Below, in pieces: positions 1-14,691 of a stretch of DNA of 43,947 nt. The notes beneath the pieces are model-generated. The model had not been told where the DNA came from. It worked only from the letters and a program-made list of their open reading frames with translations, and ran no database searches. Each line of letters starts with the position of its first letter. Position 1 is the stretch's first letter. A program made the translations under genes and the position numbers. Origin of the DNA: Escherichia phage vB_EcoS_fFiEco03; sequence record NC_073315.1; one strand, given 5' to 3'.

Positions 1-1251
1 ATGAGTATTCAGCTATCCGCTCCTCAGGCGCTGTTCCTGAACTGCGATAACAAATACAAGGCCTATGTCGGTGGCTTCGGTAGCGGTAAGACGTTTGTTG
101 GCTGTCTGGACCTGCTTACATTCATGCTTAAGCACCCCGGTACGCGCCTTGGTTACTTCGGCCCGACCTACCCGGCTATCCGCGACATCTTCTACCCGAC
201 ATTCGAGGAAGCTGCTAACCTCCTGGGCCTTGATGTGCTGGTTAAATCTGGCGACAAAGAAGTCGTTGTTACCCGCGGTAAGACGGTGCTCGGTACGGTT
301 ATCTGCCGTTCGATGGATAACCCCGGCTCGATAGTTGGTTTCAAAATCGCTGCGGCGGTCGTGGATGAGTTGGATGTGCTTAGTCGTGAGAAAGCTGAAC
401 TGGCGTGGAACAAAATCGTCGCCCGTATGCGTCTGGTTATCCCTGGCGTAACCAACCACATCTCTGTAACCACGACGCCGGAGGGATTCAAGTTCGTCTA
501 TACCAAGTTCAAAGAGAACCCTACTCCGAGTTACTCAATGGTGCAGGCTTCTACACACGAGAATGCGCGATTCCTACCGCCTGACTACATTAGCTCACTG
601 ACCGAGACTTACCCCGCGCAACTGATTAACGCGTATCTGAACGGCGAGTTCGTCAACCTGACCTCCGGCAGCGTGTATTACGCCTATGACCGCCGTAAGC
701 ACCGCAGCAAAGAGACAATTCAACCGGGCGACACGCTGTACATCGGGCAGGACTTCAACGTTACGAAGAACGCCAGCGCCGTGTATGTGCAACGTAAAGA
801 CGGCTGGCACGCGGTGGCAGAACTGAAAGGTCTGTTCGATACGCCGGATACCGTGCGCGTAATTACAGAGAAGTGGAAGTCACAAGGCCACCGCATCGTC
901 GTTTACCCCGACGCCAGCGGCAAGAATCGCAAAACCAACTCGGCGTCAATCTCTGATATTGCATTACTCCAGCAGGCGGGGTTTGATGTTCGCGCTAAAT
1001 CCGCCAACCCGCCGGTTAAAGACCGTGTTTTAGCGGTGAATACCGCACTGGAAAAAGGTAAGCTGTGGGTTAACGACCACTTATGCCCCGAGATAGCGAA
1101 GACGCTGGAGCAGCAGGCATACGACGATAATGGAGAGCCAGCTAAAGACGGCGTAATCGACCATATGGCGGATGCCCTCGGCTATCCTGTAGTTTACGAG
1201 ATGCCGGTGGTTAAACCCGTAATCAACATCCCGGTGACTTTCGCACTTTAA
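1..1251 (+). CDS. terL: Terminase large subunit
   Basis: 416-aa ORF at window start; N-terminal Walker A-like motif GGFGSGKT; followed directly by the portal gene (terL-portal synteny). Confidence 0.9.
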   Translation: MSIQLSAPQALFLNCDNKYKAYVGGFGSGKTFVGCLDLLTFMLKHPGTRLGYFGPTYPAIRDIFYPTFEEAANLLGLDVLVKSGDKEVVVTRGKTVLGTVICRSMDNPGSIVGFKIAAAVVDELDVLSREKAELAWNKIVARMRLVIPGVTNHISVTTTPEGFKFVYTKFKENPTPSYSMVQASTHENARFLPPDYISSLTETYPAQLINAYLNGEFVNLTSGSVYYAYDRRKHRSKETIQPGDTLYIGQDFNVTKNASAVYVQRKDGWHAVAELKGLFDTPDTVRVITEKWKSQGHRIVVYPDASGKNRKTNSASISDIALLQQAGFDVRAKSANPPVKDRVLAVNTALEKGKLWVNDHLCPEIAKTLEQQAYDDNGEPAKDGVIDHMADALGYPVVYEMPVVKPVINIPVTFAL

Positions 1252-1263
1252 GAGGATTATTCA

Positions 1264-2745
1264 ATGTTAACTATGAACGGTCAGAATCAGGGTGTTAAGA
1301 CAAAACACCGGGAATGGCTGCATCACTTTGATAAATGGCAGAAGGTGCGCCATGCGCTGGAAGGCGACCTTATCCGTTACCTGCGTAACGTCGGGAAGAA
1401 CGAGCCTGACCCGACTTACGCCGCCCAACGCCAGGAGGAATACGAGAACGGCGCTATCTGCTACAACTTCACCAAGCGCACCCTGTCGGGTATGGTCGGC
1501 TCAGTTATGAGAAAAGACCCTGAGCAGATTATTCCTCGTGAACTGGAGTATCTGTTACGCAATGCCGACGGTTCTGGTGTTGGCCTGTGGCAGCACGCGC
1601 AGGATACGCTGATGGAGATTGACTCAGTAGGCCGTGGTGGTTTGCTGGTTGACGCCCCGGAAACAGCCGCAGCAACGGCAGCCGAACAGAACGCCGGATT
1701 ATTAAACCCGGTCATCGCATTCTACACCGCAGAGAACATCATCAACTGGCGACTCACTCGCGTAGGCTCGGTTAACCGCGTCACGATGGTAGTGCTGCGC
1801 GAGGTATGGGAGTATTCAGAACCTGGTGCGGAGTTTGAAACCAAATTCGGCGAACAATACCGCGTTCTCGACTTGACTGATGGCCGCTACCGCCAGCGCA
1901 TATACCGTTTCGATGCCGAAGGTGGTGCGCAGGGTGATGTAAAAGAAATCTTCCCGGAACTGGGCGAACAGTTGCGCGGAAAAATCCCATTCACGTTTAT
2001 TGGTGCGAGTAATAACGACGCGACGGTTGATGACGCACCTTTGCTGCCGTTGGCAGAACTCAATATCGGACATTTCCGCAACAGCGCAGACAATGAGGAA
2101 TCTAGCTTCGTCGTAGGTCAGCCTACCCTGTTTATCGCCCCAGGCGAGAATATGAGCATGGAGCAGTGGAAAGAGGCCAACCCTCACGGCGTGCGCATGG
2201 GTTCGCGTTCAGGCCACAACATCGGCTACGGCGGCAATGCGTTTCTGGTTCAGGCGGGAGAGAACAACCTCGCCAAGCAGAACATGCTGGATAAAGAGAA
2301 TCAGGCCATTCAGATTGGTGCGCAGCTTATCACCCCGACGCAGCAAATCACCGCCGAATCCGCCCGCCTGCAACGTGGTGCTGACACGTCAGTTATGGCG
2401 ACAATCGCACGTAACGTAAGCATGGCGTATACCGATGCGTTGCGCTGGGTAGCGGCGATGCTAGGGTTGCGTGAAGGCACAGAGATTGAGTTCAAACTTA
2501 ACATGGAGTTCTTCCTGCAACCGATGACCGCTCAGGACCGCGCTCAGTGGATGGCGGACATTAATGCCGGTCTGCTGCCAGCGACCGCTTACTACGCCGC
2601 GTTGCGTAAAGCAGGGGTGACTGACTGGACCGACGAGGATATTCAGAACGCTATTGAGGACGCACCTCTGCCGTTAGGTGCTGTTACTCAGGTGGCAGGA
2701 GAGATTCCGCAGTCGGCGCAGCAACAAGATGTCACTCAGCAGTAA
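1264..2745 (+). CDS. Portal protein
   Basis: 493-aa ORF immediately downstream of terL with AGAGGA RBS about 7 nt upstream; size and position typical of a siphovirus portal. Confidence 0.8.
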   Translation: MLTMNGQNQGVKTKHREWLHHFDKWQKVRHALEGDLIRYLRNVGKNEPDPTYAAQRQEEYENGAICYNFTKRTLSGMVGSVMRKDPEQIIPRELEYLLRNADGSGVGLWQHAQDTLMEIDSVGRGGLLVDAPETAAATAAEQNAGLLNPVIAFYTAENIINWRLTRVGSVNRVTMVVLREVWEYSEPGAEFETKFGEQYRVLDLTDGRYRQRIYRFDAEGGAQGDVKEIFPELGEQLRGKIPFTFIGASNNDATVDDAPLLPLAELNIGHFRNSADNEESSFVVGQPTLFIAPGENMSMEQWKEANPHGVRMGSRSGHNIGYGGNAFLVQAGENNLAKQNMLDKENQAIQIGAQLITPTQQITAESARLQRGADTSVMATIARNVSMAYTDALRWVAAMLGLREGTEIEFKLNMEFFLQPMTAQDRAQWMADINAGLLPATAYYAALRKAGVTDWTDEDIQNAIEDAPLPLGAVTQVAGEIPQSAQQQDVTQQ

Positions 2746-2754
2746 GTTCACATA

Positions 2755-2777
2755 TAGCCCCGAAAGGGGCTTTCTTA
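2755..2777 (+). terminator. Weak intrinsic terminator or attenuator hairpin after portal
   Basis: AGCCCC-GAAA-GGGGCT hairpin followed by TTCTTAT. Confidence 0.35.
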
Positions 2778-2781
2778 TAGT

Positions 2782-3858
2782 ATGCTATTAACTTTAGCGC
2801 CACAGGGTTTATCTATGAGCTTACTTACATCTCTAATCAGCCACCAGATATGGCTGCAACGCACTGCATCCGGTGAGGTGAAAGACCTCGCGCCGTTCAT
2901 TAAGGAGATGCGGGACGAAATAAAACGGCAGGTGCTGTTATTCGGTGACGACGGGCGGAGCACTGCGCGACTGAATAAACTGTTACTCGACCTTGAAGAA
3001 GCACTGACGTGGCTTACAGGTGACTGGCAAACAAAGCTGACAGAAGACCTTAAGGAACTGGCCGCATATGAGGCTGAGTGGAACGTAAAAACACTGACCG
3101 CCAACGTTGACGCGGAATTTGTTACGCCTACCGCCGAACAGGTGTGGGCTGCTGCCGAGTTTCAGCCGCTGTCGTTAAGCGACAAGCCCGTCGATTTCAC
3201 TAAGCTGATGGCAGGCTGGGGTGAAACGGAGGCCGCGCGCCTCGTAACCGGCGTTAAGATGGGGTTTGTTCAGGGCCAAACCACACGGCAGATTGTTAAA
3301 AATGTCGTAGGCGCTGGTGGGCTGGCGGACATCTCTGAACGCAACGCGGCTACGGTAATCCGCACCGCGCTGTCTCACGTATCCAACGAAGCCCGCAACG
3401 AGACATACCGCCAGAACGACGACATCATCGAGAAATACGAGTGGGTGTCAACGCTGGACAGCCGCACCAGCACGATTTGCAGGGCCAGAGACGGAATGAC
3501 GTGGGAAATTGGTAAAGGGCCGATGCCACCCGCGCATCCTAATTGCCGAAGCACCACCGCGCCTGTAATCAGTTCGGAGTTCGACTTCCTCGATAAAGGC
3601 GCAAAACGCGCGGCTAAGGGTGCGGACGGCGGTACTCAGGTAAGTGCAGACACCACCTATTACGAGTTCCTTAAACAACAACCGGCGTGGTTTCAGGATG
3701 AAGCATTAGGGCCAGTTCGCGGTAAGATTTTCCGTAACAGCGGTATATCGCCGGAAGAGTTTCGCGTAATATCTGTAGATGGTTTCGGGAATCCGCTCAC
3801 GCTTAAGCAGATGGCGGAACTCGATAAACGTGTTGCTGATTATCTGAAAGGGGATTAA
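2782..3858 (+). CDS. Head morphogenesis protein (SPP1 gp7 / Mu F-like minor head protein)
   Basis: 358-aa ORF in the terL-portal-morphogenesis order. No clear SD at 2782, and an alternative ATG lies at 2815, so the start is uncertain. Confidence 0.7.
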   Translation: MLLTLAPQGLSMSLLTSLISHQIWLQRTASGEVKDLAPFIKEMRDEIKRQVLLFGDDGRSTARLNKLLLDLEEALTWLTGDWQTKLTEDLKELAAYEAEWNVKTLTANVDAEFVTPTAEQVWAAAEFQPLSLSDKPVDFTKLMAGWGETEAARLVTGVKMGFVQGQTTRQIVKNVVGAGGLADISERNAATVIRTALSHVSNEARNETYRQNDDIIEKYEWVSTLDSRTSTICRARDGMTWEIGKGPMPPAHPNCRSTTAPVISSEFDFLDKGAKRAAKGADGGTQVSADTTYYEFLKQQPAWFQDEALGPVRGKIFRNSGISPEEFRVISVDGFGNPLTLKQMAELDKRVADYLKGD

Positions 3859-4319
3859 TGATGGGCTTTTTCAAAGTAACTGATGTACCCGCGCGCCGCG
3901 TAGTCCAGTACGCCCGTGTGTCTGGCTCCGGCGAGAATGTGGTGTTTATTGAAGATGAAAGTGTACTAGGTACACCGGTAGACGATATGCCGTTCGCAGA
4001 TAAAACCGGTATTGCGCTACCGGCGGCGGGCATGCTTTACGAGATTCCGTATCTGGCAGACGCTGGTGACGTGTATTTCTCTGTGCAACCGAAAGACACC
4101 GAGCTGGTCGACGGTAGCACCACCATCACCGTCGAAGTTAAGGCAGGTAAAGCGCCGTATGTACTGACCTGGTACAAAGACGGGAAGGAAGTGGTGAACG
4201 CCCCGGAAGAGGCTCTGTCTCTGACTGTTAATGCGGCTGGTGAATACTTCGTTAAAGTTACTGATGCTGATGGGGTAGAGGCGGTAAGCAAGGCGGCGAA
4301 GGTTACTAAGCCAGAATGA
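3858..4319 (+). CDS. Hypothetical virion protein with C-terminal Ig-like domain
   Basis: 153 aa; ATG overlaps the upstream stop (TAATGATG); C-terminal segment resembles the Ig-like fold motif also seen in ORF 7948..8298 (PY..W.KD). Confidence 0.45.
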   Translation: MMGFFKVTDVPARRVVQYARVSGSGENVVFIEDESVLGTPVDDMPFADKTGIALPAAGMLYEIPYLADAGDVYFSVQPKDTELVDGSTTITVEVKAGKAPYVLTWYKDGKEVVNAPEEALSLTVNAAGEYFVKVTDADGVEAVSKAAKVTKPE

Positions 4320-4323
4320 TAAA

Positions 4324-4353
4324 AGGCCCCGTTAAGGGGCCTTAGTTTTATTT
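4324..4353. terminator. Bidirectional intrinsic terminator at convergent gene ends
   Basis: AGGCCCC-GTTAA-GGGGCCT stem-loop followed by TAGTTTTATTT; lies between the + gene ending 4319 and the - gene ending 4348. Confidence 0.6.
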
Positions 4354-4869
4354 AAATCGCGCTGGCATTAGCACCATAAATGCAGTGTTTGAAAACGATA
4401 TTTTGCATCCTCTGGTTTGGTCCTGGAAATCGAAACGAGCAATTTCATTTTTGTATGCCTTAGAAATCTTGTGCGCGTCTGCCAAGTAGGGCATGGTAAA
4501 TCCTATGCTATCAACTGCCCCCGGCGTGATGTGCGCCACACGTCGCCAGTCAGGAAATTTTCCGTCTACAACATCCACCGGAAGTGTACATATAAGCGCA
4601 CGACTATCGTCATAGAAAGATACACTGCCGTTGTCGTGGTCTACTTCCGCGTAGTTAAATTTAGAAGGCTCTCTCCCTTTTATGTCTATGAGAGCCCCAT
4701 TCTCAACGTTTGTCTTAACATTGTCGCAGAACAATCTATGGCCGTCCGTAGACACTATCAATCCTTCCGGGTCTATGTAAAAAGCGTTCAGATAGTAGCG
4801 TACATCATTTTTAGCCCTGCAGATTTTCGCCCCTACATACGCGGGAAAAGTAATTACTGTGGCAACCAT
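4348..4869 (-). CDS. Truncated DnaN-like (beta sliding clamp-like) protein, 173 aa
   Basis: Contains DVRYYLN...TDGHRL, DGKFPDWRRV and C-terminal MVLMPARFK, matching E. coli DnaN landmarks (DVRYYLNGMLF...TDGHRL, DGRFPDYRRV, VVMPMRL) recalled from memory; AGGAG RBS and own promoter. Confidence 0.6.
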   Translation of the reverse strand: MVATVITFPAYVGAKICRAKNDVRYYLNAFYIDPEGLIVSTDGHRLFCDNVKTNVENGALIDIKGREPSKFNYAEVDHDNGSVSFYDDSRALICTLPVDVVDGKFPDWRRVAHITPGAVDSIGFTMPYLADAHKISKAYKNEIARFDFQDQTRGCKISFSNTAFMVLMPARFK

Positions 4870-4925: not shown

Positions 4926-4991
4926 ACTATTTGTTTACGTATTCCAGTTATTCCACTCAATTGTAAATGTTGGAATAAACTATTCGAATAG

Positions 4992-5020
4992 TTGACTTTT
5001 CACTAAAAATATGCTAAGCT
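4992..5020 (+). promoter_or_regulatory. Sigma70-like promoter, class III (TTGACT-N17-TAAGCT, extended -10 TG)
   Basis: -35 TTGACT, 17-nt spacer ending in TGC, -10 TAAGCT. Near-identical to the promoter at 36798..36826. Confidence 0.6.
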
Positions 5021-5026
5021 CCACCT

Positions 5027-5134
5027 GAGCTTGTGAAGTATGAACAAGCGACCGCGGCGCGGGCAGGTAACGGAGCGGGACGTAAGTCCTGAGTGTAGTT
5101 ACGCTGACGCGTTCGGTAGGGCCATACTCTATTG
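5027..5134 (+). ncRNA. Promoter-proximal conserved structured RNA element, copy A (candidate sRNA or cis-acting leader)
   Basis: Begins at the predicted +1 of the 4992 promoter; about 80 percent identical to 36832..36941; two hairpins conserved with compensatory changes; frame not conserved between copies; terminator follows at 5201..5228. Confidence 0.45.
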
Positions 5135-5200
5135 CTTGTGTAAAAAGTAACTGGTTTACTGAGATTACGCCGTTTCAGTGTTTAAATGATAAGGACTAGC

Positions 5201-5228
5201 GCCCCGCTTTATGGCGGGGCTTTACTTA
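5201..5228 (+). terminator. Intrinsic terminator downstream of RNA element copy A
   Basis: GCCCCGC-TTTATG-GCGGGGC 7-bp GC stem followed by TTTACTT. Confidence 0.5.
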
Positions 5229-5244
5229 TCGAGAAAGGAGAAAC

Positions 5245-5631
5245 ATGAATCTTAAAGCAACTGTCGTAGCGGGAGCATGTTTCATCATCCTGGCTTACGC
5301 ACACGGCATCTATCAGTACCGCAGCGGCTGGAACGAAGGCCGGGCGAATCTCGTTTCGCAGCAACAGCAGGAAGCACAGGCTGAGCTGGTGAAGAAAACA
5401 CAACGGCAGCAGCAGGATGAATCAAAGGCCGCCGCCGCTGACAACGAAGGCAAGACGAAATCAGAGGTGATTACCCGTGAAGTCGTTAAGTACATTAAAA
5501 CGCCTGGCCGCAGCGTGTGCACTTTCGACGATGCTCGCGTCCTGCTCAAGTCCCACGCCGTTGCCAACGCCAATTCCATCCCCGGATACGACGATGATGC
5601 AGCCGCCGTGCAAACTGGCACCGCCAAGTAG
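5245..5631 (+). CDS. i-spanin (Rz-like)
   Basis: 128 aa with N-terminal TM segment (ATVVAGACFIILAYA), Q/E-rich coiled-coil region, and an overlapping +1-frame lipoprotein ORF. Confidence 0.65.
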   Translation: MNLKATVVAGACFIILAYAHGIYQYRSGWNEGRANLVSQQQQEAQAELVKKTQRQQQDESKAAAADNEGKTKSEVITREVVKYIKTPGRSVCTFDDARVLLKSHAVANANSIPGYDDDAAAVQTGTAK

Positions 5632-5740
5632 CGACGCTGACGAGGATTTAGCTATCGACGTTCAGAACGCCGAATGCGTACGGCAATTGCGCCTGAAAGT
5701 ATTCATGTTGCAGGATTACGTGAGGAATATTCTGGAATAG
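5477..5740 (+). CDS. o-spanin (Rz1-like outer-membrane lipoprotein), overlapping the i-spanin gene in the +1 frame
   Basis: GTG start with AGAGG RBS; signal peptide ending in lipobox LASC; proline-rich mature part (SPTPLPTPIPSP). Confidence 0.6.
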   Translation: MKSLSTLKRLAAACALSTMLASCSSPTPLPTPIPSPDTTMMQPPCKLAPPSSDADEDLAIDVQNAECVRQLRLKVFMLQDYVRNILE

Positions 5741-5822
5741 TTGCCTTGCATGTTGGAATAATTTATTCTTGACATGTAAATCCGGGTGGCCCGGATTCCA
5801 ACGTCCAGGGGACATACTGACT

Positions 5823-6527
5823 ATGAATCGTTTTTTACGTTATCCGTTCCAGGAAGAAGCTGGGGCAGAAGATAAATCTGGCGGTGGCGACGCTCCAAAA
5901 ATGTTCACCGCTGAAGAAGTTCAGGCGCTGATTGAGAAAGAAGTTGCCGGACTTAAGGCCAATCAGGAAGCATTGCTGGCGGAGAAGAAAGAAGCTGCCC
6001 GTAAAGCAAAAGAGGCCGAAGAGGAACGTCAGCGCGCGCACCAGGAGGCGCTAAAAGCCGCCGGTAAGATGGACGAGTTCGAAAAGACGATTCGTAGCCA
6101 GTATGACCCGGTGTTAGCCGAGAAAGATGGTCGCATCTCCAAAATGGCAGAGCGCATCCTCGGCAGCGAACGTAAAGCGGTGTTAGGCTCTTTCGCAGGT
6201 GATTTCATCACACCGGAAGCAGTAGACATTCTTGCTCCGTTCGTTAAGACTGAGTTTGAAGGCGATGACGTGGTTACTAAGTTTGTTGGTGCAGACGGCA
6301 ACGTAATCACAACTGACCCGGAACAGTTCCGCAAGTACCTGCGCGAACACAAAGCGTTTTCGCATTTGATTAAAGCAAATGCAGCTTCCGGCGGCGGGGC
6401 TTCCGGTAGCAAAGGCGGCGGGGCCGCACCAGCGTTTAAAGACATGAGTGAAGCGGAGCGTATCGCTCTGTACGAATCGAACCCTGCCGAATTTGAACGG
6501 CAACTTAAAGCCCTGAGGAAAAAATAA
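5823..6527 (+). CDS. Scaffolding protein (putative)
   Basis: About 234 aa, highly charged and coiled-coil-rich (AEKKEAARKAKEAEEERQRAHQE), immediately upstream of and stop/start-overlapping the major capsid gene. Confidence 0.6.
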   Translation: MNRFLRYPFQEEAGAEDKSGGGDAPKMFTAEEVQALIEKEVAGLKANQEALLAEKKEAARKAKEAEEERQRAHQEALKAAGKMDEFEKTIRSQYDPVLAEKDGRISKMAERILGSERKAVLGSFAGDFITPEAVDILAPFVKTEFEGDDVVTKFVGADGNVITTDPEQFRKYLREHKAFSHLIKANAASGGGASGSKGGGAAPAFKDMSEAERIALYESNPAEFERQLKALRKK

Positions 6528-7576
6528 TGGCAATTACTACTATCGGCGATATCGTAACTGGTAAAGAATCGGTAATCCTGTCCTACATGACAGAGGACCC
6601 GGTAGAGAAAACCGCGTTCTTCCAGTCCGGTATCCTTACCTCGACTCCGTACGCCGCCGCTATCGCAAACGGCCCGTCCAACAAAGCTGTTCTGCCGTAC
6701 TGGAAAGCGATTGATACCTCTATCGAACCGAACTACTCGAACGATGTGTATCAGGATGTCGCCACCCCACGTAACGTGCAAACCGGTGAGATGGATGTTC
6801 GCGTGGCTTATCTGAACGAAGGTTTCGGCCAGGCGGATTTGACTGTTGAACTGACCAGCCAGAACCCGCTGCAATCCGTAGCGTCCCGTCTGGATAACTT
6901 CTGGCAGCGTCAGGCACAACGCCGTCTGATTGCTACCGCGCTCGGTCTGTACAACGACAACGTAGCCGCTACCGACGCATACCACGAGCAGAACGACATG
7001 GTAGTGGACGTGTCCGCAACCCTGGGCTTCGACTCGGGCGCGTTCATCGACGCTACCCAGACTATGGGTGATGCGCTGATGGGCAACGGCGGTGAAGTGT
7101 TGGGCGCTATCGCGATGCACAGCTTCGTATATGCGCAGGCACGTAAACAGCAGCTTATCGACTTCATCCGCGACGCCGATAACAACACCATGTTTGCTAC
7201 TTACCAGGGCTACCGCGTGATTGTTGACGACAGCATGACCGTAGTCGGCACCGGCCCGAGCCGTAAGTTCATCTCCATCATCTTCGGTAACGGTGCTATC
7301 GGTTACGGCGAGGGCAACCCGTCTAACCCGCTGGAATACGAACGCGAAGCGTCTCGTGGTAACGGTGGTGGCGTTGAAACCCTGTGGACCCGTAAGACCT
7401 GGTTGCTGCATCCGTTTGGTTACAGCTTCACCAGCGCGGTAATCACTGGCAACGGGACCGAGACTATCGCCCGCTCTGCTTCCTGGCAGGACCTGGCGAA
7501 CGCCTCCAACTGGAACCGTGTTGTTGACCGTAAGCATGTACCTATTGCCTTCCTGGTAACTGGCGTCGGTGCTTAA
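6527..7576 (+). CDS. Major capsid protein
   Basis: 349 aa following the scaffold gene (TAATG overlap) and followed by a strong terminator; position and size typical. Confidence 0.8.
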   Translation: MAITTIGDIVTGKESVILSYMTEDPVEKTAFFQSGILTSTPYAAAIANGPSNKAVLPYWKAIDTSIEPNYSNDVYQDVATPRNVQTGEMDVRVAYLNEGFGQADLTVELTSQNPLQSVASRLDNFWQRQAQRRLIATALGLYNDNVAATDAYHEQNDMVVDVSATLGFDSGAFIDATQTMGDALMGNGGEVLGAIAMHSFVYAQARKQQLIDFIRDADNNTMFATYQGYRVIVDDSMTVVGTGPSRKFISIIFGNGAIGYGEGNPSNPLEYEREASRGNGGGVETLWTRKTWLLHPFGYSFTSAVITGNGTETIARSASWQDLANASNWNRVVDRKHVPIAFLVTGVGA

Positions 7577-7591
7577 GGTTAAGATATAATC

Positions 7592-7620
7592 GAGAGGGAC
7601 TTCGGTCCCTCTTTTCATTT
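7592..7620 (+). terminator. Intrinsic terminator after the major capsid gene
   Basis: GAGAGGGAC-TTCG-GTCCCTCTT stem-loop followed by TTCATTT. Confidence 0.7.
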
Positions 7621-7635
7621 ACTAAGAGGTAAATT

Positions 7636-7935
7636 ATGGCCAAGACCGGAAAAGGCTTGCCGCGCAGCCTTCAGAATGTCGATTTCGGCGACTTTGATAT
7701 CCCAGTCACGCCTGCTACTACCAGCGTAGTTGGTGGCGTTAAAAAGTCAGCTACTGTAGCCGCACCTGCGGCGGTTACCGCTGGTGAAGGAGCGCAGTCT
7801 GCTGACGCCCCGACTAAGACCGAGTTCGATGCCCTTGTAGCTGAGTACAACAAACTCCGAACTGATGTTACCGCGCTGCGCACTACCGTAGCAGATCTGT
7901 TGACTGCGCTTAAAAACGCAGGAACCGTAAGCTAA
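7636..7935 (+). CDS. Hypothetical head-associated protein
   Basis: 99 aa with AAGAGG RBS; Ala/Thr-rich N-terminus and coiled-coil C-terminus. Confidence 0.45.
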   Translation: MAKTGKGLPRSLQNVDFGDFDIPVTPATTSVVGGVKKSATVAAPAAVTAGEGAQSADAPTKTEFDALVAEYNKLRTDVTALRTTVADLLTALKNAGTVS

Positions 7936-7947
7936 AGGAGCTTAAAA

Positions 7948-8298
7948 ATGGTTGATGTAATCAAACGTCGTATTACCGGTGTTTCTGATGATTCTCCTGC
8001 CGATGGTCAGGTTGAAATCGATATGGCGAATATCTCGCCAGCGTCTTTTTCTACCGCGCTTGCGGCTACCACCGAAGTTACGGCGGGGGAGACTATGACT
8101 CTTACCGTAGTGGTAACTGGCGGTCTGGAGCCGTATTCCTACCAGTGGTACAAAGATAACAACGCCATCGACGGAGCCACCGCAGCTACCTATGCGAAGG
8201 CGTCCACTACTACCGCAGATTCAGGCCCGTATAAAGTGGTTGTTCACGATGTGTATGGTAATATTATCTCCAGCAGCACCGTAGCAACTGTGTCTTAA
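7948..8298 (+). CDS. Ig-like domain protein (possible head decoration)
   Basis: 116 aa with AAAGGAG RBS; Ig-like signature (LEPYSYQWYKD...ADSGPYKVVV). Confidence 0.45.
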   Translation: MVDVIKRRITGVSDDSPADGQVEIDMANISPASFSTALAATTEVTAGETMTLTVVVTGGLEPYSYQWYKDNNAIDGATAATYAKASTTTADSGPYKVVVHDVYGNIISSSTVATVS

Positions 8299-8334
8299 TA
8301 CAACGGCCCTTCGGGGCCGTAATAAGGAAAGGTC

Positions 8335-8514
8335 ATGGCAGATAATTACGTAATCCGCGAAAAGTACACCCACGTTGATATTGTTGACGGTCAGGTAATG
8401 CCGGTTCGCGGTGTTGTAGAAGCGGATGAACTGGTTGCGACTCAACCGGACAGCGAAGAAGCGCACAACAACGGCGGCGGTACTAAGCGTCGTCGCCGTA
8501 AGTCAGAGGAATAA
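8335..8514 (+). CDS. Small hypothetical protein, 59 aa, basic C-terminus
   Basis: ATG with AAGGAAAGG RBS; ORF hand-translated (MADNYVIREKY...GTKRRRRKSEE); below the ORF-track cutoff. Confidence 0.4.
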   Translation: MADNYVIREKYTHVDIVDGQVMPVRGVVEADELVATQPDSEEAHNNGGGTKRRRRKSEE

Positions 8515-8517
8515 TTT

Positions 8518-9030
8518 ATGCCGCTAATCGTGGAAACTGGGGTGATCGTCCCGAATGCCGACAGTTACGTTAGCCTGGCTGATGCCCGCGCGTTAGCGGC
8601 TAATTATGGTCTGGAGTTACCGGCAGACGATACTGCCGCAGAGGTGGCCTTACGTAACGGTGCTACTTATGTCGGGCTTGCAGAACCGCAGATGTGTGGT
8701 CGTCGGGTATCCGCTGAACAGTCTCTGGCGTACCCACGCACCGGTGTTACGTTGAATGGTTTCCCCGTAGCTAACAATGCCATTCCAAAACAGGTGATTC
8801 TTGCGCAGGTAATCGCGTCTGCTACATATGGCGCAGGTACGGAAGTGCGGGCTAACTCAGACGGTCGCGCTGTGCAGACTGAGCGTGTCGAGGGCGCGGT
8901 AACAGTGACCTACTTCAACAACGGCAGCAGTGGTGCTACGACCGCGATTACCGCTGCGGACGACGCCTTACGCCCGTTACTGTGCGGTGGTCTTAACAAT
9001 GGCTTCTCGTTTAATGTGTACCGGGGTTAA
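8518..9030 (+). CDS. Putative head-tail connector or adaptor protein
   Basis: 170-aa ORF in the head-to-tail transition region of the morphogenesis operon; assignment by synteny only. Confidence 0.4.
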   Translation: MPLIVETGVIVPNADSYVSLADARALAANYGLELPADDTAAEVALRNGATYVGLAEPQMCGRRVSAEQSLAYPRTGVTLNGFPVANNAIPKQVILAQVIASATYGAGTEVRANSDGRAVQTERVEGAVTVTYFNNGSSGATTAITAADDALRPLLCGGLNNGFSFNVYRG

Positions 9031-9032
9031 AA

Positions 9033-9647
9033 ATGGCGAAGACTAAATCTGAGATATTTACCCTTATAGGGCAGGAGTTACCCGACAACACGACGGGGCT
9101 TATTACTCCGGCCAAGCTGCGCGGTGTTCTTACGCAGATGGCTGACTCACCTATTTACGCCACTCCTGGCGTTAAAGAGGTTGAAGTTCTCCGTGCCGCG
9201 TCTACCGTAACACAAGCGCCTACCGCGGTAGATACGGCATTGCAGTTAACTTTCGGTCCCGCGCAGGGTAGCGCATCTGACCCGGTAATGATTAATGCAG
9301 CGGGTCTGGTTACGTTCAACACTGCAGGCAACTACGCCGTTCGCATCAAGTTACAGGCCGGGCGCACTGGGGCAAGCGGCACGTCTATCCTGTTATCGCG
9401 CATTCTTCTGAACGGCGCTCAGTATGGCTCGCCCGCAGCCACTAAACTGGTAAGCGCCGATACTACAATCCCGATTGAATCCCGTGTGGTTATTAATGCG
9501 ACGGCAGGCCAGACGTTTTCCGTTCAGATTATGCGGGATAGTGCCGGAACTAACTACGGCGGCGTATACCCGCAAGTGGCTACGGTAACCGCATGGGGTA
9601 CCGCCCCGTCGGCACTACTGGTTATTTCGAGACTGGAGGCCGCCTGA
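9033..9647 (+). CDS. Hypothetical structural protein
   Basis: 204-aa ORF, tightly packed in the structural operon. Confidence 0.45.
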   Translation: MAKTKSEIFTLIGQELPDNTTGLITPAKLRGVLTQMADSPIYATPGVKEVEVLRAASTVTQAPTAVDTALQLTFGPAQGSASDPVMINAAGLVTFNTAGNYAVRIKLQAGRTGASGTSILLSRILLNGAQYGSPAATKLVSADTTIPIESRVVINATAGQTFSVQIMRDSAGTNYGGVYPQVATVTAWGTAPSALLVISRLEAA

Positions 9648-9745
9648 TGAATAAGTTCACATGTGGTGTAGTTTTTGGTTTTCTTACCGCGGTAGTCTTG
9701 CACAGTTACGGTGTTCTTTTGACGCTGCAAGAGGTGCTAAAATGA
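9647..9745 (+). CDS. Micro-ORF: 32-aa hydrophobic (single-TM-like) peptide
   Basis: ATG overlaps the upstream stop (TGATG) with GGAGG RBS 8 nt upstream; its stop overlaps the next ATG (ATGA). Sequence MNKFTCGVVFGFLTAVVLHSYGVLLTLQEVLK. Confidence 0.35.
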   Translation: MNKFTCGVVFGFLTAVVLHSYGVLLTLQEVLK

Positions 9746-10101
9746 GCACCGCTTTCAGTAAACGTATGCAAGGCGTCGGTACACGCCTGCTAACCAAATT
9801 CGGTAGCACGGTATCTCTTGTTCGCGCTGGCTCGAAAGTGTGGGATGAAGTTCTCGGTGAGTATGTCCGGTCCGCGGATGAAGTGTTGCCGTTGAAGGCT
9901 GTTCCGGTTCCGGTAAACGTTGGACTGGTAAACGGTACGACGATTCAGGCGGGCGACATGATTGTTAAAGCCGATTGCAGTGTCGTTCCTAAGATGGAAG
10001 ACAAGGTGCAATTCGGCGGCGAGCAATGGTCCGTCGTAGCTATCGAGAAGAAGATGGTTAACGATGATGTCGTGGCATACTTTATTCAGGTGAGAAAATG
10101 A
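9742..10101 (+). CDS. Putative head-closure or neck protein
   Basis: ATG at 9742 with AGAGG RBS (the ORF-track start at 9661 is probably an upstream alternative codon); 119 aa; synteny. Confidence 0.4.
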   Translation: MSTAFSKRMQGVGTRLLTKFGSTVSLVRAGSKVWDEVLGEYVRSADEVLPLKAVPVPVNVGLVNGTTIQAGDMIVKADCSVVPKMEDKVQFGGEQWSVVAIEKKMVNDDVVAYFIQVRK

Positions 10102-10493
10102 GTTTCGCGCTTGATGTCTCTAAGTTCGTGGAAAAGGCGAAGAAGAACCCCGAGAAGGTGATGCGTCAGGTGTCTATCAAGCTGTTTTCCGCTATTATAA
10201 AGGCGAGTCCGGTAGATACGGGCCGCTTTCGTATGAACTGGATGGTGTCTGGCGGTACTCCTGCTTCCGGGATTACGGACGCCACCGATAAATCAGGAAA
10301 CACGGCAACCGGAAACGCCACTAGTTTTGTGCTGAAAGCCGCAGACTGGCACGAGTTCACGCTGACTAATAACCTGCCGTACGCCCAACCTCTTGAGTAC
10401 GGTTGGTCGCAACAGGCCCCGCAAGGCATGGTCAGGACTAATGTGTCACGCTTCCAGCAACTAATTAATGAAGAAGCCAATAAGGTAAAATGA
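10098..10493 (+). CDS. Tail component (HK97 gp10-like)
   Basis: 131 aa containing a VDTGRFRMNW motif recalled as typical of the HK97 gp10 tail-component family. Confidence 0.5.
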   Translation: MSFALDVSKFVEKAKKNPEKVMRQVSIKLFSAIIKASPVDTGRFRMNWMVSGGTPASGITDATDKSGNTATGNATSFVLKAADWHEFTLTNNLPYAQPLEYGWSQQAPQGMVRTNVSRFQQLINEEANKVK

Positions 10494-10906
10494 TGGGCTA
10501 CTTTGAAGACTTAACCAAAGCGTTCGACGTGCCGCTGGTAGCCTTCGGGGCCGCCAACGGCATCAGGGTAGCGCTTGAGAACATCGACGCTCCGACGTCA
10601 ACCGATACGCCATACCTTGCGAGTTACATGCTACTGGCGGATACCGAGCAGGCCGACTTATTTTTCACCGAGCAACGTGCAGGTATTTATCAGGTAGACA
10701 TTAACTACGCATCTGTGAAAGGTAGCGCGCCAATCAATAAAATGGCAGACTTACTTAACACGGCATTCAAAGCAGGTAAGTCTTTTTCACGTAACGACAT
10801 CTGCGCCGAAGTGCAATCGGTTAGCCTGGGGCCGCTGATTGTAGAAAATGGATGGGCCAAAAGACCATTGTCGATTAACTTTATTGCATTCACCAAGAGG
10901 CTGTGA
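10490..10906 (+). CDS. Putative tail completion or terminator protein
   Basis: 138-aa ORF immediately upstream of the major tail gene; synteny only. Confidence 0.4.
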   Translation: MMGYFEDLTKAFDVPLVAFGAANGIRVALENIDAPTSTDTPYLASYMLLADTEQADLFFTEQRAGIYQVDINYASVKGSAPINKMADLLNTAFKAGKSFSRNDICAEVQSVSLGPLIVENGWAKRPLSINFIAFTKRL

Positions 10907-10908
10907 AT

Positions 10909-12075
10909 ATGGCTACAACTCCTTTTAAGGGCGCGAATACCGCGCAATTCTATGTGGCGGAAACTACCCCGGGCGTGACACCGACTTCCCCGGTATGGTC
11001 GCCGTTGCGCAATACTGGCGGTGTTCCTGCGGTAACCCGCGACGCGCTGACCTCCAACGAACTCGACGGCAGCAGAGAAACCACATCCATCCGCACCGGT
11101 AACAAACAGGTTAGCGGGGAGTACGCCATCGAACTTAGCTCACGTAGCCAGGATGATTTCCTTGCGGGTGCTATGACTTCTACGTGGCAGGATGGGGTAG
11201 AGATTACGGGTGCTGAAATTACGGTCGCTCCAGCAGGTAAAACATTCACCCGCGCTGCCGGTAGCTTCATTACTGACGGTGTAGAAGTTGGCGACCTGAT
11301 TGCGTTCACCGACTTAACCGGCGACAACGCAAAACCGTTTATCGTGACTGAGGTTTCTGCTCTTGTAGTTACGGGTGCGGGTATCCAGCACACGCTGACA
11401 GCAGAGACTGTAACCACCGACGCTAAAACAGGCGATAAACTGGAAACCGGTAACGCATGTAAGACGTTCTCCATCCTGACATGGTTCAAAGGACAGTGCG
11501 GGAACCCTGACGCGTACATGCTGACCAAAGGCGTGGAAATCTCCGGTTTCACCATTGAACAGGCCGTAAACGCGATGGTGACAGGCAGCTTCCCGTTCAT
11601 CGGTCTGAGTCAGGAAATTCTTTCTGCACCGCCAGCAGGTTCTGATTTCTCTCAGGTGACGTTTACCGATGAGCCGTTCTCATCCGTAGATGTGTCTGTG
11701 TTCGACGGTTCTACGCCGTTGCGTTGCGATACTCTGACCATCACCAACGACAACGGTGCGTCCGCACAGTTCGAACTAGGCAACAGTAGCGTCGCGTTCG
11801 TGGAACGTGGTCGCGCGGCTAACACATTCTCCATCTCCGGCAAGCTGTACGACATGGCGATGATTCAGAAGTTTATCAACGAACAGCAGGTAGAGATTAA
11901 CTCTATTCTGGCGGGGGTAAACGGGGCTATGTCTTTCAGCCTGAAACGTGCCGAGTTGACCGCAGTTACGCCAGAAATATCTGGCCCAGAATCAATCACC
12001 CAGAGCATAGAGGGACAGTCCACCGGCAATCAGTACCAGTCATCTATCGTAATTCAGCGTATTAGTTACACATAA
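10909..12075 (+). CDS. Major tail protein
   Basis: ATG at 10909 with AAGAGG RBS; about 388 aa; followed by a strong terminator and, further on, the chaperone and tape measure genes. Confidence 0.65.
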   Translation: MATTPFKGANTAQFYVAETTPGVTPTSPVWSPLRNTGGVPAVTRDALTSNELDGSRETTSIRTGNKQVSGEYAIELSSRSQDDFLAGAMTSTWQDGVEITGAEITVAPAGKTFTRAAGSFITDGVEVGDLIAFTDLTGDNAKPFIVTEVSALVVTGAGIQHTLTAETVTTDAKTGDKLETGNACKTFSILTWFKGQCGNPDAYMLTKGVEISGFTIEQAVNAMVTGSFPFIGLSQEILSAPPAGSDFSQVTFTDEPFSSVDVSVFDGSTPLRCDTLTITNDNGASAQFELGNSSVAFVERGRAANTFSISGKLYDMAMIQKFINEQQVEINSILAGVNGAMSFSLKRAELTAVTPEISGPESITQSIEGQSTGNQYQSSIVIQRISYT

Positions 12076-12120
12076 CTTGTGGTATAAGAAGAGTAAAGGA
12101 TAGCTTTAGCGGGCGAAAAA

Positions 12121-12150
12121 GAGAGGGGTCGTGCCCTCTCTTTCCTTTAT
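12121..12150 (+). terminator. Intrinsic terminator after the major tail gene
   Basis: GAGAGGG-GTCGTG-CCCTCTC stem-loop followed by TTTCCTTTAT. Confidence 0.65.
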
Positions 12151-12182
12151 ACGGTAAATACACGAGCCTGACGAGGTGAATA

Positions 12183-12815
12183 ATGTTCTTGTATGAAGAA
12201 TTTGAAAAGATACCAGCATCAAAACGGGCGGTATCATGCCGTAAAACAATCTGCGGAGTCGGTGTCAACGATGCAGATTTCACCACCAGTATTTTCAACG
12301 GCAAAAAGTCTGTTAACCACCCGGTGTACGATATTTGGTGTGCGATGATATTCAGGTGCTACCATGGGTCCGTTAAGCATCCAACATACTCAGGAGTGGT
12401 AGTGTGTGAAGACTGGCTGTATTTCTCCAACTACTTTAAATGGTACAAAGATAACTACGTAGAGGGTTGGCATGTTGACAAAGATTTGCTTACGGATTCT
12501 AAAGAATACTCACCGGATACCTGTATATTTGTCCCAAGAGTTTTAAACAACTTTCTAACCGACAGCGCAGCGGCTAGAGGTGACCTACCGATAGGCCTTA
12601 CTTATAGGAAAACAAACGGCAAGATTCGATGCAGGGTTAATAATCCGCTAACCGGGGTGCGCGAAAACTTAGGCGATTTTACCGATTTGGATGAAGCCAT
12701 CAAGGCCAGAACGCTGCGGAAGTTAGAGATAGCCGGAGAACTTAAGCCACTTATGGATTCCATAGACGGGAGAATCTATCCGAGGGCCGTTTCTGTAATT
12801 AAGGCACAACGATAA
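12183..12815 (+). CDS. Putative homing endonuclease (HNH-like nuclease domain plus C-terminal AP2-like DNA-binding domain)
   Basis: N-terminal W..M..RC...HP.Y.G..VC.DW..F..F..W...EGWHVDKDLL...YSPDTC pattern; C-terminal GKIRCRVNNPLTGVRENLGDFTDLDEAIKA (AP2-like); free-standing between terminators. Confidence 0.55.
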   Translation: MFLYEEFEKIPASKRAVSCRKTICGVGVNDADFTTSIFNGKKSVNHPVYDIWCAMIFRCYHGSVKHPTYSGVVVCEDWLYFSNYFKWYKDNYVEGWHVDKDLLTDSKEYSPDTCIFVPRVLNNFLTDSAAARGDLPIGLTYRKTNGKIRCRVNNPLTGVRENLGDFTDLDEAIKARTLRKLEIAGELKPLMDSIDGRIYPRAVSVIKAQR

Positions 12816-12819
12816 AACT

Positions 12820-12845
12820 AAGGCCCCTTTCGGGGCCTTTTTCTT
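12820..12845. terminator. Bidirectional intrinsic terminator (28-nt sequence repeated at 24735..24762)
   Basis: AAGGCCCC-TTTC-GGGGCCTT with U-rich flanks on both strands; convergent junction. Confidence 0.7.
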
Positions 12846-13074
12846 ACTCATCAATATTGCTTCGGTACTCCCGTAACTTCTCCAGGCTTTCGATTGCCTC
12901 AGCTAAGTCTGTCCAGGTGTCCTTGTGACCACGTAAACCCATACACAATAGCTTCTTCAATGCGTGCTGTAACGCCGGGTCGCGTATGTCGAAGGCGCGT
13001 AGCACGTCGTAAACGTCTACAGTCATGGTGCTGCCGTGGGTGTTTGTCATTGTGCGGTTGTATTTATTTGTCAC
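12844..13074 (-). CDS. Hypothetical small protein (start ambiguous: 13074, 13050 or 13026)
   Basis: Last gene of the - strand island; no clear SD for any candidate start. Confidence 0.4.
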   Translation of the reverse strand: MTNKYNRTMTNTHGSTMTVDVYDVLRAFDIRDPALQHALKKLLCMGLRGHKDTWTDLAEAIESLEKLREYRSNIDE

Positions 13075-13264
13075 GGTTAACTCTCTTAAATCGGGCTATG
13101 CCTGACTCGTTAATGCTGCCTATTTCAAAGAAGCTGCGATATTTAGGCGAATACATTCTTACGTCGCCGTTCTCTAGGGTGACCCCTTCATATACAGCGC
13201 CTACTTCGAATCCATTTTTCTCCGCGTACGGACTCACATCGGTGCATTCATACATATCTTTCAT
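13064..13264 (-). CDS. Hypothetical protein, 66 aa
   Basis: ATG overlaps the stop of the upstream phosphoesterase gene (ATGA coupling). Confidence 0.5.
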   Translation of the reverse strand: MKDMYECTDVSPYAEKNGFEVGAVYEGVTLENGDVRMYSPKYRSFFEIGSINESGIARFKRVNRDK

Positions 13265-14391
13265 CCCAGCATCTCCGGTGAAATAGTTAAACGTGCGACC
13301 TCGCCATATTCGGCGCTATAAGTAATTACATTTGCACTACGGCCCGACATCCATCCGCCGCGCGAGGCGTAGGCGTCTTTAGCCGCTAAGGTGCGGTGTT
13401 GCTCAACAATCATGTTACGGCTTTCTACAATCTTCTGGTGGTGGAGGTGGCCTACGTGGGCGTAGCTGTAAACGCTTTCGCCAAATGCTTTGCGGAACTT
13501 GGCAATCATAACCGGTTCGATAGCGTCTAATCGCGCCTTATGCCCGTGGTGAAAGAACAGCGTAGTTTTGCCGTGTTTGACCATCTTGTAAACATCCGGC
13601 GACGTATCGACGAACACACGCGGCTCATTGTCGTACAGCGTACTAAACATCTCAGCTAACCAAATCATTCCGCTTTCGTCGTGGTTCCCTTGCACGATAA
13701 GCAAGCGAACAGATTTATGCTTAACCAGCGCCATGTCAACAACACGGCGTACCATACGAATCATGTAGCGGACCAGTTTCTGATAACGAGTGTCCGCATC
13801 AAGAACATGACCACTCGCTGGCGTAACCGCATCCAGACTATCGAAGTGCGCGAAGTCACCCAGCAGGTTAATAACCCCAGTTCCTGCATCTGGTGCTTTC
13901 TGAAACGCCGCATCGAACCATCGGGAGAACAGGTCTTCCGCAATCTTCATATCCCAGTCGTCGCCGCTCTCGTCAGCCCAGGCCAGCATACCAAGATGGA
14001 AATCAGATACCGTGTACAGATTGAGTAGTTTATCGTCGCGTTTGGCTCGAGTCGCTTTAACCGGCGCAACTGGCGTAATCTCCGACTTCATTCCTTCGAT
14101 CACGGCTTTCATTAACTCGACCTGACGTTCGGCGTCGGTGTCTGTCTTAACCCATTGCAACTTAGTGTTGCCGAACTCGTCCACCAGTGACGACGTTCCT
14201 TTAATTTTGTAGCCGTCCGGGACAAGATGGCTAACGTCACGACCGTGACCTACGCCTTTCTTCGCCAGCTTCGCTTTACGGATACGAATAACTCGGTCTG
14301 AGATGCCGTATTTACGGGATATGTCGATAATCTTTGTTCCGGCGTTCAATTCTTCCTGTAACTGTTCGTCGGTTATTTTCTTCCGGGCCAT
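13261..14391 (-). CDS. Calcineurin-like metallophosphoesterase with N-terminal HTH (SbcD/Mre11-like motifs)
   Basis: Motifs SDFHLG, GDFAHFD, GNHDES, FHHGH and GHLHH in canonical order; N-terminal HTH-like segment (ISRKYGISDRVIRIRKAKL); GAGGAAG RBS. Confidence 0.7.
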   Translation of the reverse strand: MARKKITDEQLQEELNAGTKIIDISRKYGISDRVIRIRKAKLAKKGVGHGRDVSHLVPDGYKIKGTSSLVDEFGNTKLQWVKTDTDAERQVELMKAVIEGMKSEITPVAPVKATRAKRDDKLLNLYTVSDFHLGMLAWADESGDDWDMKIAEDLFSRWFDAAFQKAPDAGTGVINLLGDFAHFDSLDAVTPASGHVLDADTRYQKLVRYMIRMVRRVVDMALVKHKSVRLLIVQGNHDESGMIWLAEMFSTLYDNEPRVFVDTSPDVYKMVKHGKTTLFFHHGHKARLDAIEPVMIAKFRKAFGESVYSYAHVGHLHHQKIVESRNMIVEQHRTLAAKDAYASRGGWMSGRSANVITYSAEYGEVARLTISPEMLG

Positions 14392-14429
14392 GCTTACTTC
14401 CTCGTGTTTAGGATTTGTCCTATACTAGC

Positions 14430-14621: not shown

Positions 14622-14662
14622 GGTGTAGCTCCTGTTTGAGTTAACATTGTTGGTGTAAGTGA

Positions 14663-14691
14663 ATAGTATCCTATTATGTTGGGGTGCGCAA
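14663..14691 (-). promoter_or_regulatory. Sigma70-like promoter, class I (TTGCGC-N17-TACTAT), drives the reverse island
   Basis: On the - strand: TTGCGC, spacer ACCCCAACATAATAGGA, TACTAT. Near-identical to the + strand promoter at 37107..37135. Confidence 0.55.

Follow-up and report, generated by a model that had tools for sequence, protein, structure and literature searches.

The eps-associated RNA (EAR) of Bacillus subtilis is an operon-internal RNA that promotes processive antitermination. Phage HK022 carries the put RNAs, two paralogous RNAs of ~70 nucleotides (nt) with two stems each, located just 3' of the PL and PR promoters (PMC9378689). These RNAs bind the zinc-binding domain of the beta' subunit, and the polymerase resists pausing and termination without the help of a phage protein; a pause site lies ~18-21 nt past the second stem (PMC9378689). 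In Stx phages, the short transcript from the PR' promoter is the source of a small RNA (sRNA), StxS (PMC7547250). Here we analyze a structured element that occurs twice in Escherichia phage vB_EcoS_fFiEco03 (sequence record NC_073315.1), whose whole stretch of 43,947 nt is called the window below. Copy A heads the late operon with the capsid genes and copy B an early operon, each directly behind a promoter. Comparison with related phages indicates that the element is a ~105-nt autonomous non-coding RNA domain under selection for structure, and it is a new RNA family.

Among the therapeutic and biocontrol phages isolated against E. coli and Salmonella, Guernseyvirinae (Kagunavirus, Jerseyvirus, Cornellvirus) rank with the most frequent, and they have been proposed as a small chassis for synthetic biology. 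We know of nothing reported on how they time or sustain late transcription with the host polymerase. A conserved RNA with which the capsid-operon transcript begins would be an obvious place to exert such control. Our literature search found no paper describing the element or linking Guernseyvirinae with antitermination, and the BASEL paper is silent on transcription. The GenBank annotation at the element is limited to a predicted promoter, a predicted terminator and a coding sequence (CDS) that is spurious. At the gathering threshold, Rfam 15 had no match anywhere in the window, and at E <= 10 only chance-level ones appeared around both copies; put is not in Rfam, and these negatives are therefore silent on membership in the put family. 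Transcription starts, termination and function are all inferred from sequence in what follows.

Two Paralogous Copies Behind Matching Promoters

BLAST of both element regions against the GenBank phages identified the 43,947-bp window as a complete Kagunavirus (Guernseyvirinae) genome, with the E. coli phages Ivi and fFiEco02 as its closest relatives. The promoter of copy A (4992-5020, + strand) has TTGACT at -35 (4992-4997) and TAAGCT at -10 (5015-5020), separated by a 17-nt spacer that ends in TGc, with the TG at 5012-5013 forming an extended -10. Its predicted +1 is G5027, exactly where the conserved core (5027-5134) begins. Both element promoters are of the sigma70 type. The promoter of copy B (36798-36826, + strand) is 88% identical and likewise combines TTGACT (36798-36803), a 17-nt spacer ending in TGc (TG at 36818-36819) and TAAGCT (36821-36826), followed by a core at 36832-36941 on the same strand. 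A first-pass annotation of the window had placed a conserved core at the predicted +1 of a TTGACT-N17-TAAGCT promoter, and this arrangement was recovered at both loci. It had also called the two cores paralogous, in agreement with their alignment at 79.6% identity over 147 nt (BLAST within the window, E = 7e-28) and with the recovery of promoter and core as repeat families D9 and D5.

A covariance model, R1, built from 29 of the 34 distinct cores described below, matched the window only twice with filters off, at 141 bits (copy A) and 104 bits (copy B). The next best hit scored 7 bits, and no third copy was found in the window by this search. Relative to shuffled sequences, folding was stronger for both cores (z = -2.2 for A and -3.9 for B) and for each whole leader (z about -3).

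The copy-A promoter was also called as a host promoter by PHIRE in the GenBank record of fBC-Eco01. Its design is kept in Salmonella phage Jersey (TTGACT-N17-TACGCT with TGt) and in the Cornellvirus form C1 (TGGATT/TGGACT ... TGaTAACCT). The core thus starts at the +1 of a conserved promoter in three genera, which supports its position as a leader.

A Common Fold Maintained by Compensatory Changes

Minimum-energy folds give a common two-hairpin domain for cores A and B, and 10 representatives folded independently by minimum free energy share one architecture. It consists of P1, a junction of 0-2 nt, P2 (CCG/CGG, a bulged C, GGNGCG/CGCNUU and more stem segments, then an asymmetric internal loop and an apical hairpin that varies by type) and, left unpaired, a conserved tail with the consensus ...UUCGGAAGGG-N6-9-(C/G)UCUAUUG. 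In copy A, P1 is predicted to pair GCUUGU (5029-5034) with ACAAGC (5044-5049). P2 (5052-5116) follows with P2a (CCG/CGG), the bulged C, P2b (GGCGCG/CGCGUU), the segments CAG/CUG and GUAAC/GUUAC, the internal loop GGAGCG / UGAGUGUA and the apical hairpin GGAC-GUAA-GUCC (5078-5089), after which the tail UAGGGCCAUACUCUAUUG (5117-5134) is left single-stranded. Copy B, which is of type B1, has its P1 at 36834-36841 (GCUUGUGA) and 36846-36853 (UCGCAAGC), its P2 at 36856-36923 with the apical hairpin GUGCC-AUUA-GGCAC (36882-36895), and its tail at 36924-36941. Within one phage, the two copies carry different apical hairpins and different 5' internal loops.

The pairing survives extensive sequence change. 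On inspection by hand, all arms pair in all the types listed. P1 reads GCUUGU/ACAAGC in Kagunavirus, GCUUGUGA/UCGCAAGC in B1 and UACGCU/AGCGUA in Jersey, with five of six pairs differing between Kagunavirus and Jerseyvirus; the N-N' pair of P2b is C-G, A-U or U-A depending on type, and the apical hairpin, loop included, has a different sequence in each of the seven types listed. In a model-based alignment of 34 matches (30 distinct sequences), a kind of alignment that leans toward the model, 96.8% of cells were paired, compared to 82.1% after column shuffles (0/500) and 30-46% with slid partners. Both sides had changed in 12 of the 25 pairs of this alignment, with a covariation score of 0.376 vs 0.125. 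An unfitted MAFFT/RNAalifold alignment already contained five compensatory pairs. About seven independent sequence types underlie these covariation statistics. At its base, P2b has invariant G-U pairs (GG/UU) that would be A-C mismatches on the opposite strand, indicating that the + strand is the one that folds.

The first-pass annotation had read the differences between the two copies as the covariation of a functional RNA. This view extends well beyond the window, with seven types from two genera keeping P1, P2a, P2b and the apical hairpin through compensatory changes. The covariance-model search of related phages that it had proposed found the element conserved, with covariation, in both Kagunavirus and Jerseyvirus. 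We also considered a pseudoknot in which the P1 loop (AGUAUG) would pair with the tail (CAUACU), a match that is perfect in type A; it was rejected because tail variants (C, G, A or U at one position) go uncompensated, and the Jersey P1 loop of only 3 nt also speaks against it.

The absence of a reading frame common to the copies, likewise claimed earlier, was borne out. The 36-amino-acid (aa) open reading frame (ORF) that overlies the element measures 36, 19, 22, 9, 17, 41 or 34 aa across variants, with frameshifts. Its AUG is missing from B1, from one type-A variant (L090) and from Jersey, where the 'gp08' CDS begins at the TTG of the -35 hexamer. The GenBank CDSs over the element are, judging from these comparisons, almost certainly spurious, and many 'hypothetical proteins' would be corrected as mis-annotated. 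'Hypothetical protein' CDSs are annotated over the element in records L001 (4468-4578), L002 (6328-6438), L123 (192-308) and L101 (7265-7456).

Distribution and Exchange Between Loci

By BLAST, copy A is present in all ~179 Kagunavirus-type records, from phages of both E. coli and Salmonella, and the whole 237-nt unit, leader spacer included, is 95-99% identical in 172 of the 179. Copy B is detectable in ~41 of the ~179 and is diverse. An exact-pattern scan of IMG/VR, filtered locally, returned 34 distinct cores in five types, A, B1, B2, B3 and B4, with B1 carried by the window, B2 by fKuEco01 and B3 by Schulenburg.

Outside Kagunavirus, R1 matched a divergent copy in Salmonella phage Jersey, likewise between the head genes and the spanin (37 bits, E = 1.5e-8). 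This Jersey-type element occurs once per genome in 269 Jerseyvirus records, and several variants of it are also found in IMG/VR. Cornellvirus and unclassified relatives have structured leaders at the late locus in two forms, C1 (GRNsp27, phiEap-2, Hafnia TS33) and a larger one with four hairpins, C2 (Shemara, VSiP, TS6, SE1, Pantoea AH01). Both have the ...CGGAAGGG... / AUAGUCUAUU tail in common, and C2 also shares a CAG-stem-[GUAA hairpin]-UGAG-stem-CUG unit. Homology of the 5' parts of C1 and C2 to P1/P2 is uncertain, with R1 giving only 6 bits at the right place in GRNsp27. By major capsid protein, Guernseyvirinae form a tight cluster (>88% identity, next relatives at 43%); the element was not found outside this subfamily, and BLAST against 5,426 complete E. 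coli genomes gave no match. The 5' end of the late operon is the ancestral and universal position in Guernseyvirinae, with the promoter-plus-RNA module also heading the early operon in some Kagunaviruses.

A mosaic record points to movement between these positions. In L088 (2180-2440; IMG/VR 3300045988_039442), a B4-type P2 core lies at the late locus within A-type flanks, and in L021 (6700-7090; IMG/VR 3300045988_002593) a B4-type core lies at the early locus. The sequences indicate that recombination exchanges the ~55-nt core from locus to locus and from phage to phage.

Promoters and Terminators of the Two Leaders

The copy-A core is followed by an A/U-rich spacer (5135-5200), which carries a GUAACUGGUUUACUGAGAUU-type motif that is loosely common to other leaders, and by a terminator-like hairpin, t1 (5201-5230, + strand). 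Its stem-loop GCCCCGC-UUUAU-GGCGGGGC (5201-5220) leads into UUUACUUAUC, and t1 as a whole lies 15 nt upstream of the i-spanin start codon at 5245. t1 is the first of 41 terminator-like sites in 5000-24900 by our terminator scan and was also predicted as a terminator by ARNold in the fBC-Eco01 record. In the fold of the full leader, it forms independently of core A, 67 nt away, and no alternative pairing was predicted.

The GC hairpin with a U-rich tail that the first-pass annotation described was found behind copy A and not behind copy B. There, a composite hairpin (37009-37064, + strand) followed by UUUU (to 37067) is weakly terminator-like, with a lower stem AGAGUAC/GUACUCU and an upper stem GGGUGGGC-UAAC-GCCCACCC (37028-37047). 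This upper stem is the GC hairpin and has no adjacent U run, and a simple terminator scan made no call at the composite hairpin. The region 3' of copy B is also present in phage K1H, which lacks the element.

Across relatives, the U-rich tail after the leader hairpin is a feature of Kagunavirus copy A. The Jersey hairpin (GCCCGGC-UUAC-GCCGGGC, then UUAGCGUAU) and the Cornellvirus hairpin (GUGGGG...CCCCAC, then UGUUACGAGG) have no U tract. All leaders have a GC hairpin 10-30 nt 5' of a Shine-Dalgarno sequence or of the next promoter, with or without U's.

From the element to the start codon of the spanin gene, the + strand showed no other promoter-like site; a weak promoter predicted by PHIRE appears in the spacer of one GenBank record, upstream of the t1 hairpin. 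The copy-A promoter thus appears to be the only evident promoter for the essential capsid genes. Scaffold and capsid transcripts should accordingly begin with the copy-A RNA, since no other + strand promoter was found from 5228 to the spanin start and the single gene upstream (4348-4869) is on the - strand, behind a bidirectional terminator at 4323-4343. Transcripts that begin there must therefore pass t1 as well as t2 (7592-7613, + strand), a predicted intrinsic terminator just 3' of the major capsid gene that is annotated as a terminator in phage Schulenburg. The copy-A unit ends at a strong bidirectional terminator 3' of the tail-tube gene (12820-12839, repeat D7).

Copy B differs in its surroundings. 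A second predicted promoter, overlooked in the first-pass annotation, lies between it and the first early gene (start at 37169): TTGCAC-N17-TACTAT at 37107-37135 (+ strand, repeat D3), with an embedded palindromic operator, TAATAGGATACTATTC. A motif, TAAGTnACTGAT, is common to all early leaders, with or without the element (36962-36975 in the window; L001 ~34450; L100 ~3093; L101 ~39063). Its reverse complement fits the core consensus of integration host factor (IHF), WATCAR-N4-TTR, and copy A has a degenerate version only.

Upstream of copy A, a palindrome, GGAATA-AAC-TATTCG (4972-4986), lies 5 bp before the -35 hexamer; Jersey (GGAATACTTTATTC) as well as Cornellvirus, phiEap-2 and Hafnia TS33 (GGAATAAATTATTCC) have equivalents in the corresponding position. 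The palindrome is probably bound by a phage regulator that acts on the late promoter. In the form GGAATA-N3-TATTC(C/G), the palindrome is kept in Kagunavirus, Jerseyvirus and Cornellvirus C1 (L101 ~7245; L115 ~1330) and is absent at copy B. TATTCC half-sites occur nearby, at 4940-4957.

Proposed Function and Its Alternatives

We tentatively favor the view that the element is a leader RNA whose action in cis, on the elongating polymerase or its transcript, would secure read-through of the operon, so that it would work like put without belonging to the put family; we regard this as plausible, if short of probable. The RNA would fold while leaving RNA polymerase and would act in cis on the transcribing complex or the nascent transcript. 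Transcription would then be carried efficiently through t1, t2 and the rest of the 7.8-kb unit. More speculatively, the tail, whose UAUUG end lies ~18 nt past P2, may encode a pause during which the RNA could fold or dock.

Three features speak for a leader acting in cis and against a terminator-bounded sRNA. Conservation of the fold does not extend to the 3' terminator, the element's promoter is the sole evident source of the essential late mRNA, and the module is portable between operons whose genes are unrelated, which points to a generic effect on the transcription unit and not to gene-specific control. In keeping with a generic role, a second copy stands at the head of the other long + strand operon, and the B4 P2 core can be found at either locus. 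A PHROGs scan of 20 small early and regulatory proteins identified no N/Q-like antiterminator family; it recognized only two helix-turn-helix (HTH) regulators, and most of the proteins are of unknown function. No boxA (CGCUCUUA / UGCUCUUUAACAA) was found in 5027-5245 or 36832-37170, allowing up to 3 mismatches for the 13-mer or 1 for the 8-mer. The ops site of RfaH was set aside as a candidate, the CGGTAG in question being present only in the window's copy A, with CGGAAG in other members, and hence not a conserved feature.

A more specific version of this proposal is that of an RNA-only processive antiterminator or anti-pausing element in virulent Guernseyvirinae, unrelated to put in sequence and fold, in which promoter and RNA would form a portable cassette that makes the host RNA polymerase terminator-resistant on any operon at whose head it stands, the late one in every case and the early one in some. 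We consider this version possible but rather unlikely.

Several observations weigh against a role in operon read-through. The sole Kagunavirus transcriptome that we found is gene-level only. R1 gives no score on HK022 putL, and binding of the element to RNA polymerase is a proposal. Copy B is optional at the early locus: about three quarters of the Kagunaviruses, and Jersey, have unrelated leaders there, by which comparison the element is dispensable at this position. The promoter at 37107-37135 follows copy B, which could therefore be a separate short unit. Leaders of Jerseyvirus and Cornellvirus have no obvious terminator, and a need for antitermination is not evident in them. The early-locus leaders of K1H and Jersey have no P1/P2, but they do carry a tail-like motif (GUCUAUUU; GAGCUAUAUUC) together with a UAAGUnACUGA motif; given its presence in early leaders without P1-P2, the tail motif may be a separate signal. 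Finally, the fast divergence of internal loops and architecture between genera fits co-evolution with a phage protein better than recognition of a conserved host polymerase surface.

This last point bears on a rather unlikely alternative, in which the leader is bound in cis by a phage protein, as an N/nut-like antiterminator or a regulator of translation or decay, or else serves RNA processing or stability. In the processing variant, a 5' cap-like fold would be combined with cleavage in the A/U-rich spacer, and the mRNA would then start at the GC hairpin upstream of the Shine-Dalgarno sequence; consistent with this is the GC hairpin that every leader has 10-30 nt ahead of a Shine-Dalgarno sequence or of the following promoter. 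The 'specificity types' of the element (A, B1-B4, J, C1, C2) diversify fast while the architecture is kept, and nut/N pairs likewise have fast-diversifying specificity types on a kept architecture. A protein partner could hide among the early proteins, most of which are of unknown function. The lack of boxA and of any N/Q-like family in the 20 small proteins tested argues in the other direction, and the apical loop is GNRA-like in some types only. Because copies A and B differ in the apical hairpin and 5' internal loop, one protein would have to read the shared parts alone. For a leader that protects against decay, a simple 5' hairpin would suffice, leaving the conserved 105-nt domain unexplained.

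We consider it unlikely that the element is a discrete trans-acting sRNA. Such an RNA would be ~200 nt long for copy A (5027 to 5228) and ~235 nt for copy B (ending at 37067) and would pair with or sequester host or phage targets, with late mRNA arising by leaky read-through. Copy A indeed comes with a promoter of its own and a good U-tailed terminator, behind copy B stand the composite hairpin plus UUUU and then a separate promoter, the conservation of the 237-nt unit in 172 of 179 records extends over its entire length, and the precedent of StxS is compatible (PMC7547250). However, the U-tailed terminator is not conserved in Jerseyvirus and Cornellvirus and is absent or weak behind copy B, and the essential capsid genes have no other evident promoter. 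Duplex energies of the tail and proximal spacer (5106-5160 and 36913-36970) with 65 translation-initiation regions of the phage were, within this set of phage targets, no better than those of shuffles. The U tract UUUACUUAUC would also make a poor 3' end of the Hfq type.

A riboswitch or other ligand-sensing attenuator controlling the 5201-5220 terminator is highly improbable. The order of promoter, structured domain, terminator and gene would suit it, as would the conservation of internal loops such as UGAGUGUAG in Kagunavirus, but there is no Rfam match even at E <= 10, a 67-nt non-conserved spacer precedes the terminator with no competing antiterminator pairing, the canonical terminator is missing in copy B and in the Jerseyvirus and Cornellvirus leaders, and the putative pocket nucleotides and internal loops differ between genera. 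Least credible of all is that there is no RNA element, the locus being instead a small protein gene (the 36-aa ORF, annotated as a CDS in GenBank) or a DNA signal such as a replication origin, a single-strand initiation site or a regulator array (suggested by the GC-skew minimum near copy B and the regulator-type palindromes flanking the copy-A promoter), since neither length nor frame of the ORF is conserved, its start codon is lost and the Jersey CDS starts in the -35, strand-specific G-U pairs are kept by compensatory changes, GC skew follows gene orientation, and K1H keeps the region 3' of copy B without the element.

Even if the element proved to be an sRNA or a protein-binding leader, it would still be a new RNA family with ~450 sequenced members. 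If it does work like put, phages would have only a second known class of antiterminator RNA that needs no protein, and virulent phages their first; builders of terminator-proof E. coli operons would gain a compact, portable part.

Genome Setting

The gene map of the window was drawn from its ORF list and the annotation of relatives. The early/lysis block on the + strand runs from ~37.1 kb to the genome end and on into the terminase, portal and head genes (1-4319), a block closed by the 4323-4343 terminator. The late block on the + strand (5245-12075) holds the spanins, scaffold, major capsid, connectors and tail tube; after a small - strand insert, the tail genes follow (14800-24736), and the replication genes occupy 24765-36750 on the - strand. 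The cumulative GC skew has its minimum at the divergent junction beside copy B (36-37 kb) and its maximum at the convergent junction at ~24.7 kb. As evidence for a replication origin, this skew was rejected because it is fully confounded with gene orientation.

Other transcription signals punctuate this map. The early unit has a predicted terminator at 38471-38492. Directly after the endolysin gene (~41533-41560) lies a very strong terminator, CCCGGC...GCCGGG plus nine U's, and immediately after it a TTGACT-N17-TATATT promoter whose leader is short and unstructured; this terminator-promoter pair (41533-41613) divides the + strand early/lysis block from the genes leading into terminase. The tail-gene operon (start 14800) has a short, structured leader of its own (14700-14790), UGCGCC...GCGGG-UGGUU-CCCGU...GGCGCA followed by UUUACC, which is unrelated to the element by model search.

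Two repeated sigma70-like promoter classes, TTGCNN-N17-TACTAT and TTGACA-N17-TATAGT, embed a palindromic operator, (T/G)AATAG-N4-CTATTC. The TTGCNN class is found at 37107-37135 (+), 38585-38613 (+), 4925-4895 (-) and 14691-14661 (-), and other operator-bearing sites lie at 30996-30953, 33611-33568 and 27263-27220 (-). These promoters front early, middle and replication genes and flank a Cro-like HTH gene (33662-33877), in what looks, from sequence, like a phage repressor/operator network.

Comparison With Known Systems

EAR resembles the element in being a structured cis RNA in a long operon that is proposed to make polymerase terminator-resistant. It comes from another organism and has another fold, and Rfam gave no match for the element. 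The nutL and nutR sites of lambda are likewise two leader RNA signals 3' of two promoters, with a hairpin that varies by phage 'specificity type'. Unlike nut, the element has no boxA and is far larger than the 15-nt boxB, and an N-like protein was not detected.

In layout, the late locus recalls the PR'-tR' region of lambda, which gives rise to 6S RNA and is controlled by Q. Both combine a constitutive-looking promoter, an untranslated leader of ~200 nt and a terminator, followed by lysis and then structural genes. As with StxS, the short terminated transcript could itself be a stable RNA. Q, however, uses DNA sites and a sigma-dependent pause without a conserved RNA fold, whereas the fold of the element is conserved. 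No Q homologue was found here among the 20 proteins scanned against PHROGs, and the terminator is not conserved across genera.

HK022 put shows both clear differences from the element and the most specific likenesses to it. We located putL in HK022 (L099, 5236-5313, minus strand), where R1 found no match with filters off; putR was not found in HK022 by similarity to putL. Membership in the put family was rejected on the lack of a score at putL and on differences in size and conserved residues. The element is ~105 nt long, compared to ~70 nt for put, and has none of the put signature residues: the signature consists of a V-shaped stem-loop pair, an A3GACG7/C15-U19 duplex, U28, G35-A9 and G43-A64, and it does not describe the element. 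Conversely, the element's motifs GACCGCGG, UGAGUGUAG, UUCGGAAGGG and CUAUUG are without counterpart in putL. Its phage is a virulent, non-lambdoid siphovirus, and its universal copy is on the late operon, the early copy being optional. Like put, however, the element has two paralogous copies in one phage, each just 3' of the promoter of a long terminator-containing operon. Both are built of two adjacent stem-loops in genomes with no recognizable dedicated antiterminator protein, and both have a conserved sequence at a fixed distance of ~18-21 nt past the second stem. Should the element act by RNA alone in the manner of put, put-type control would be a convergent and widespread strategy rather than a lambdoid curiosity.

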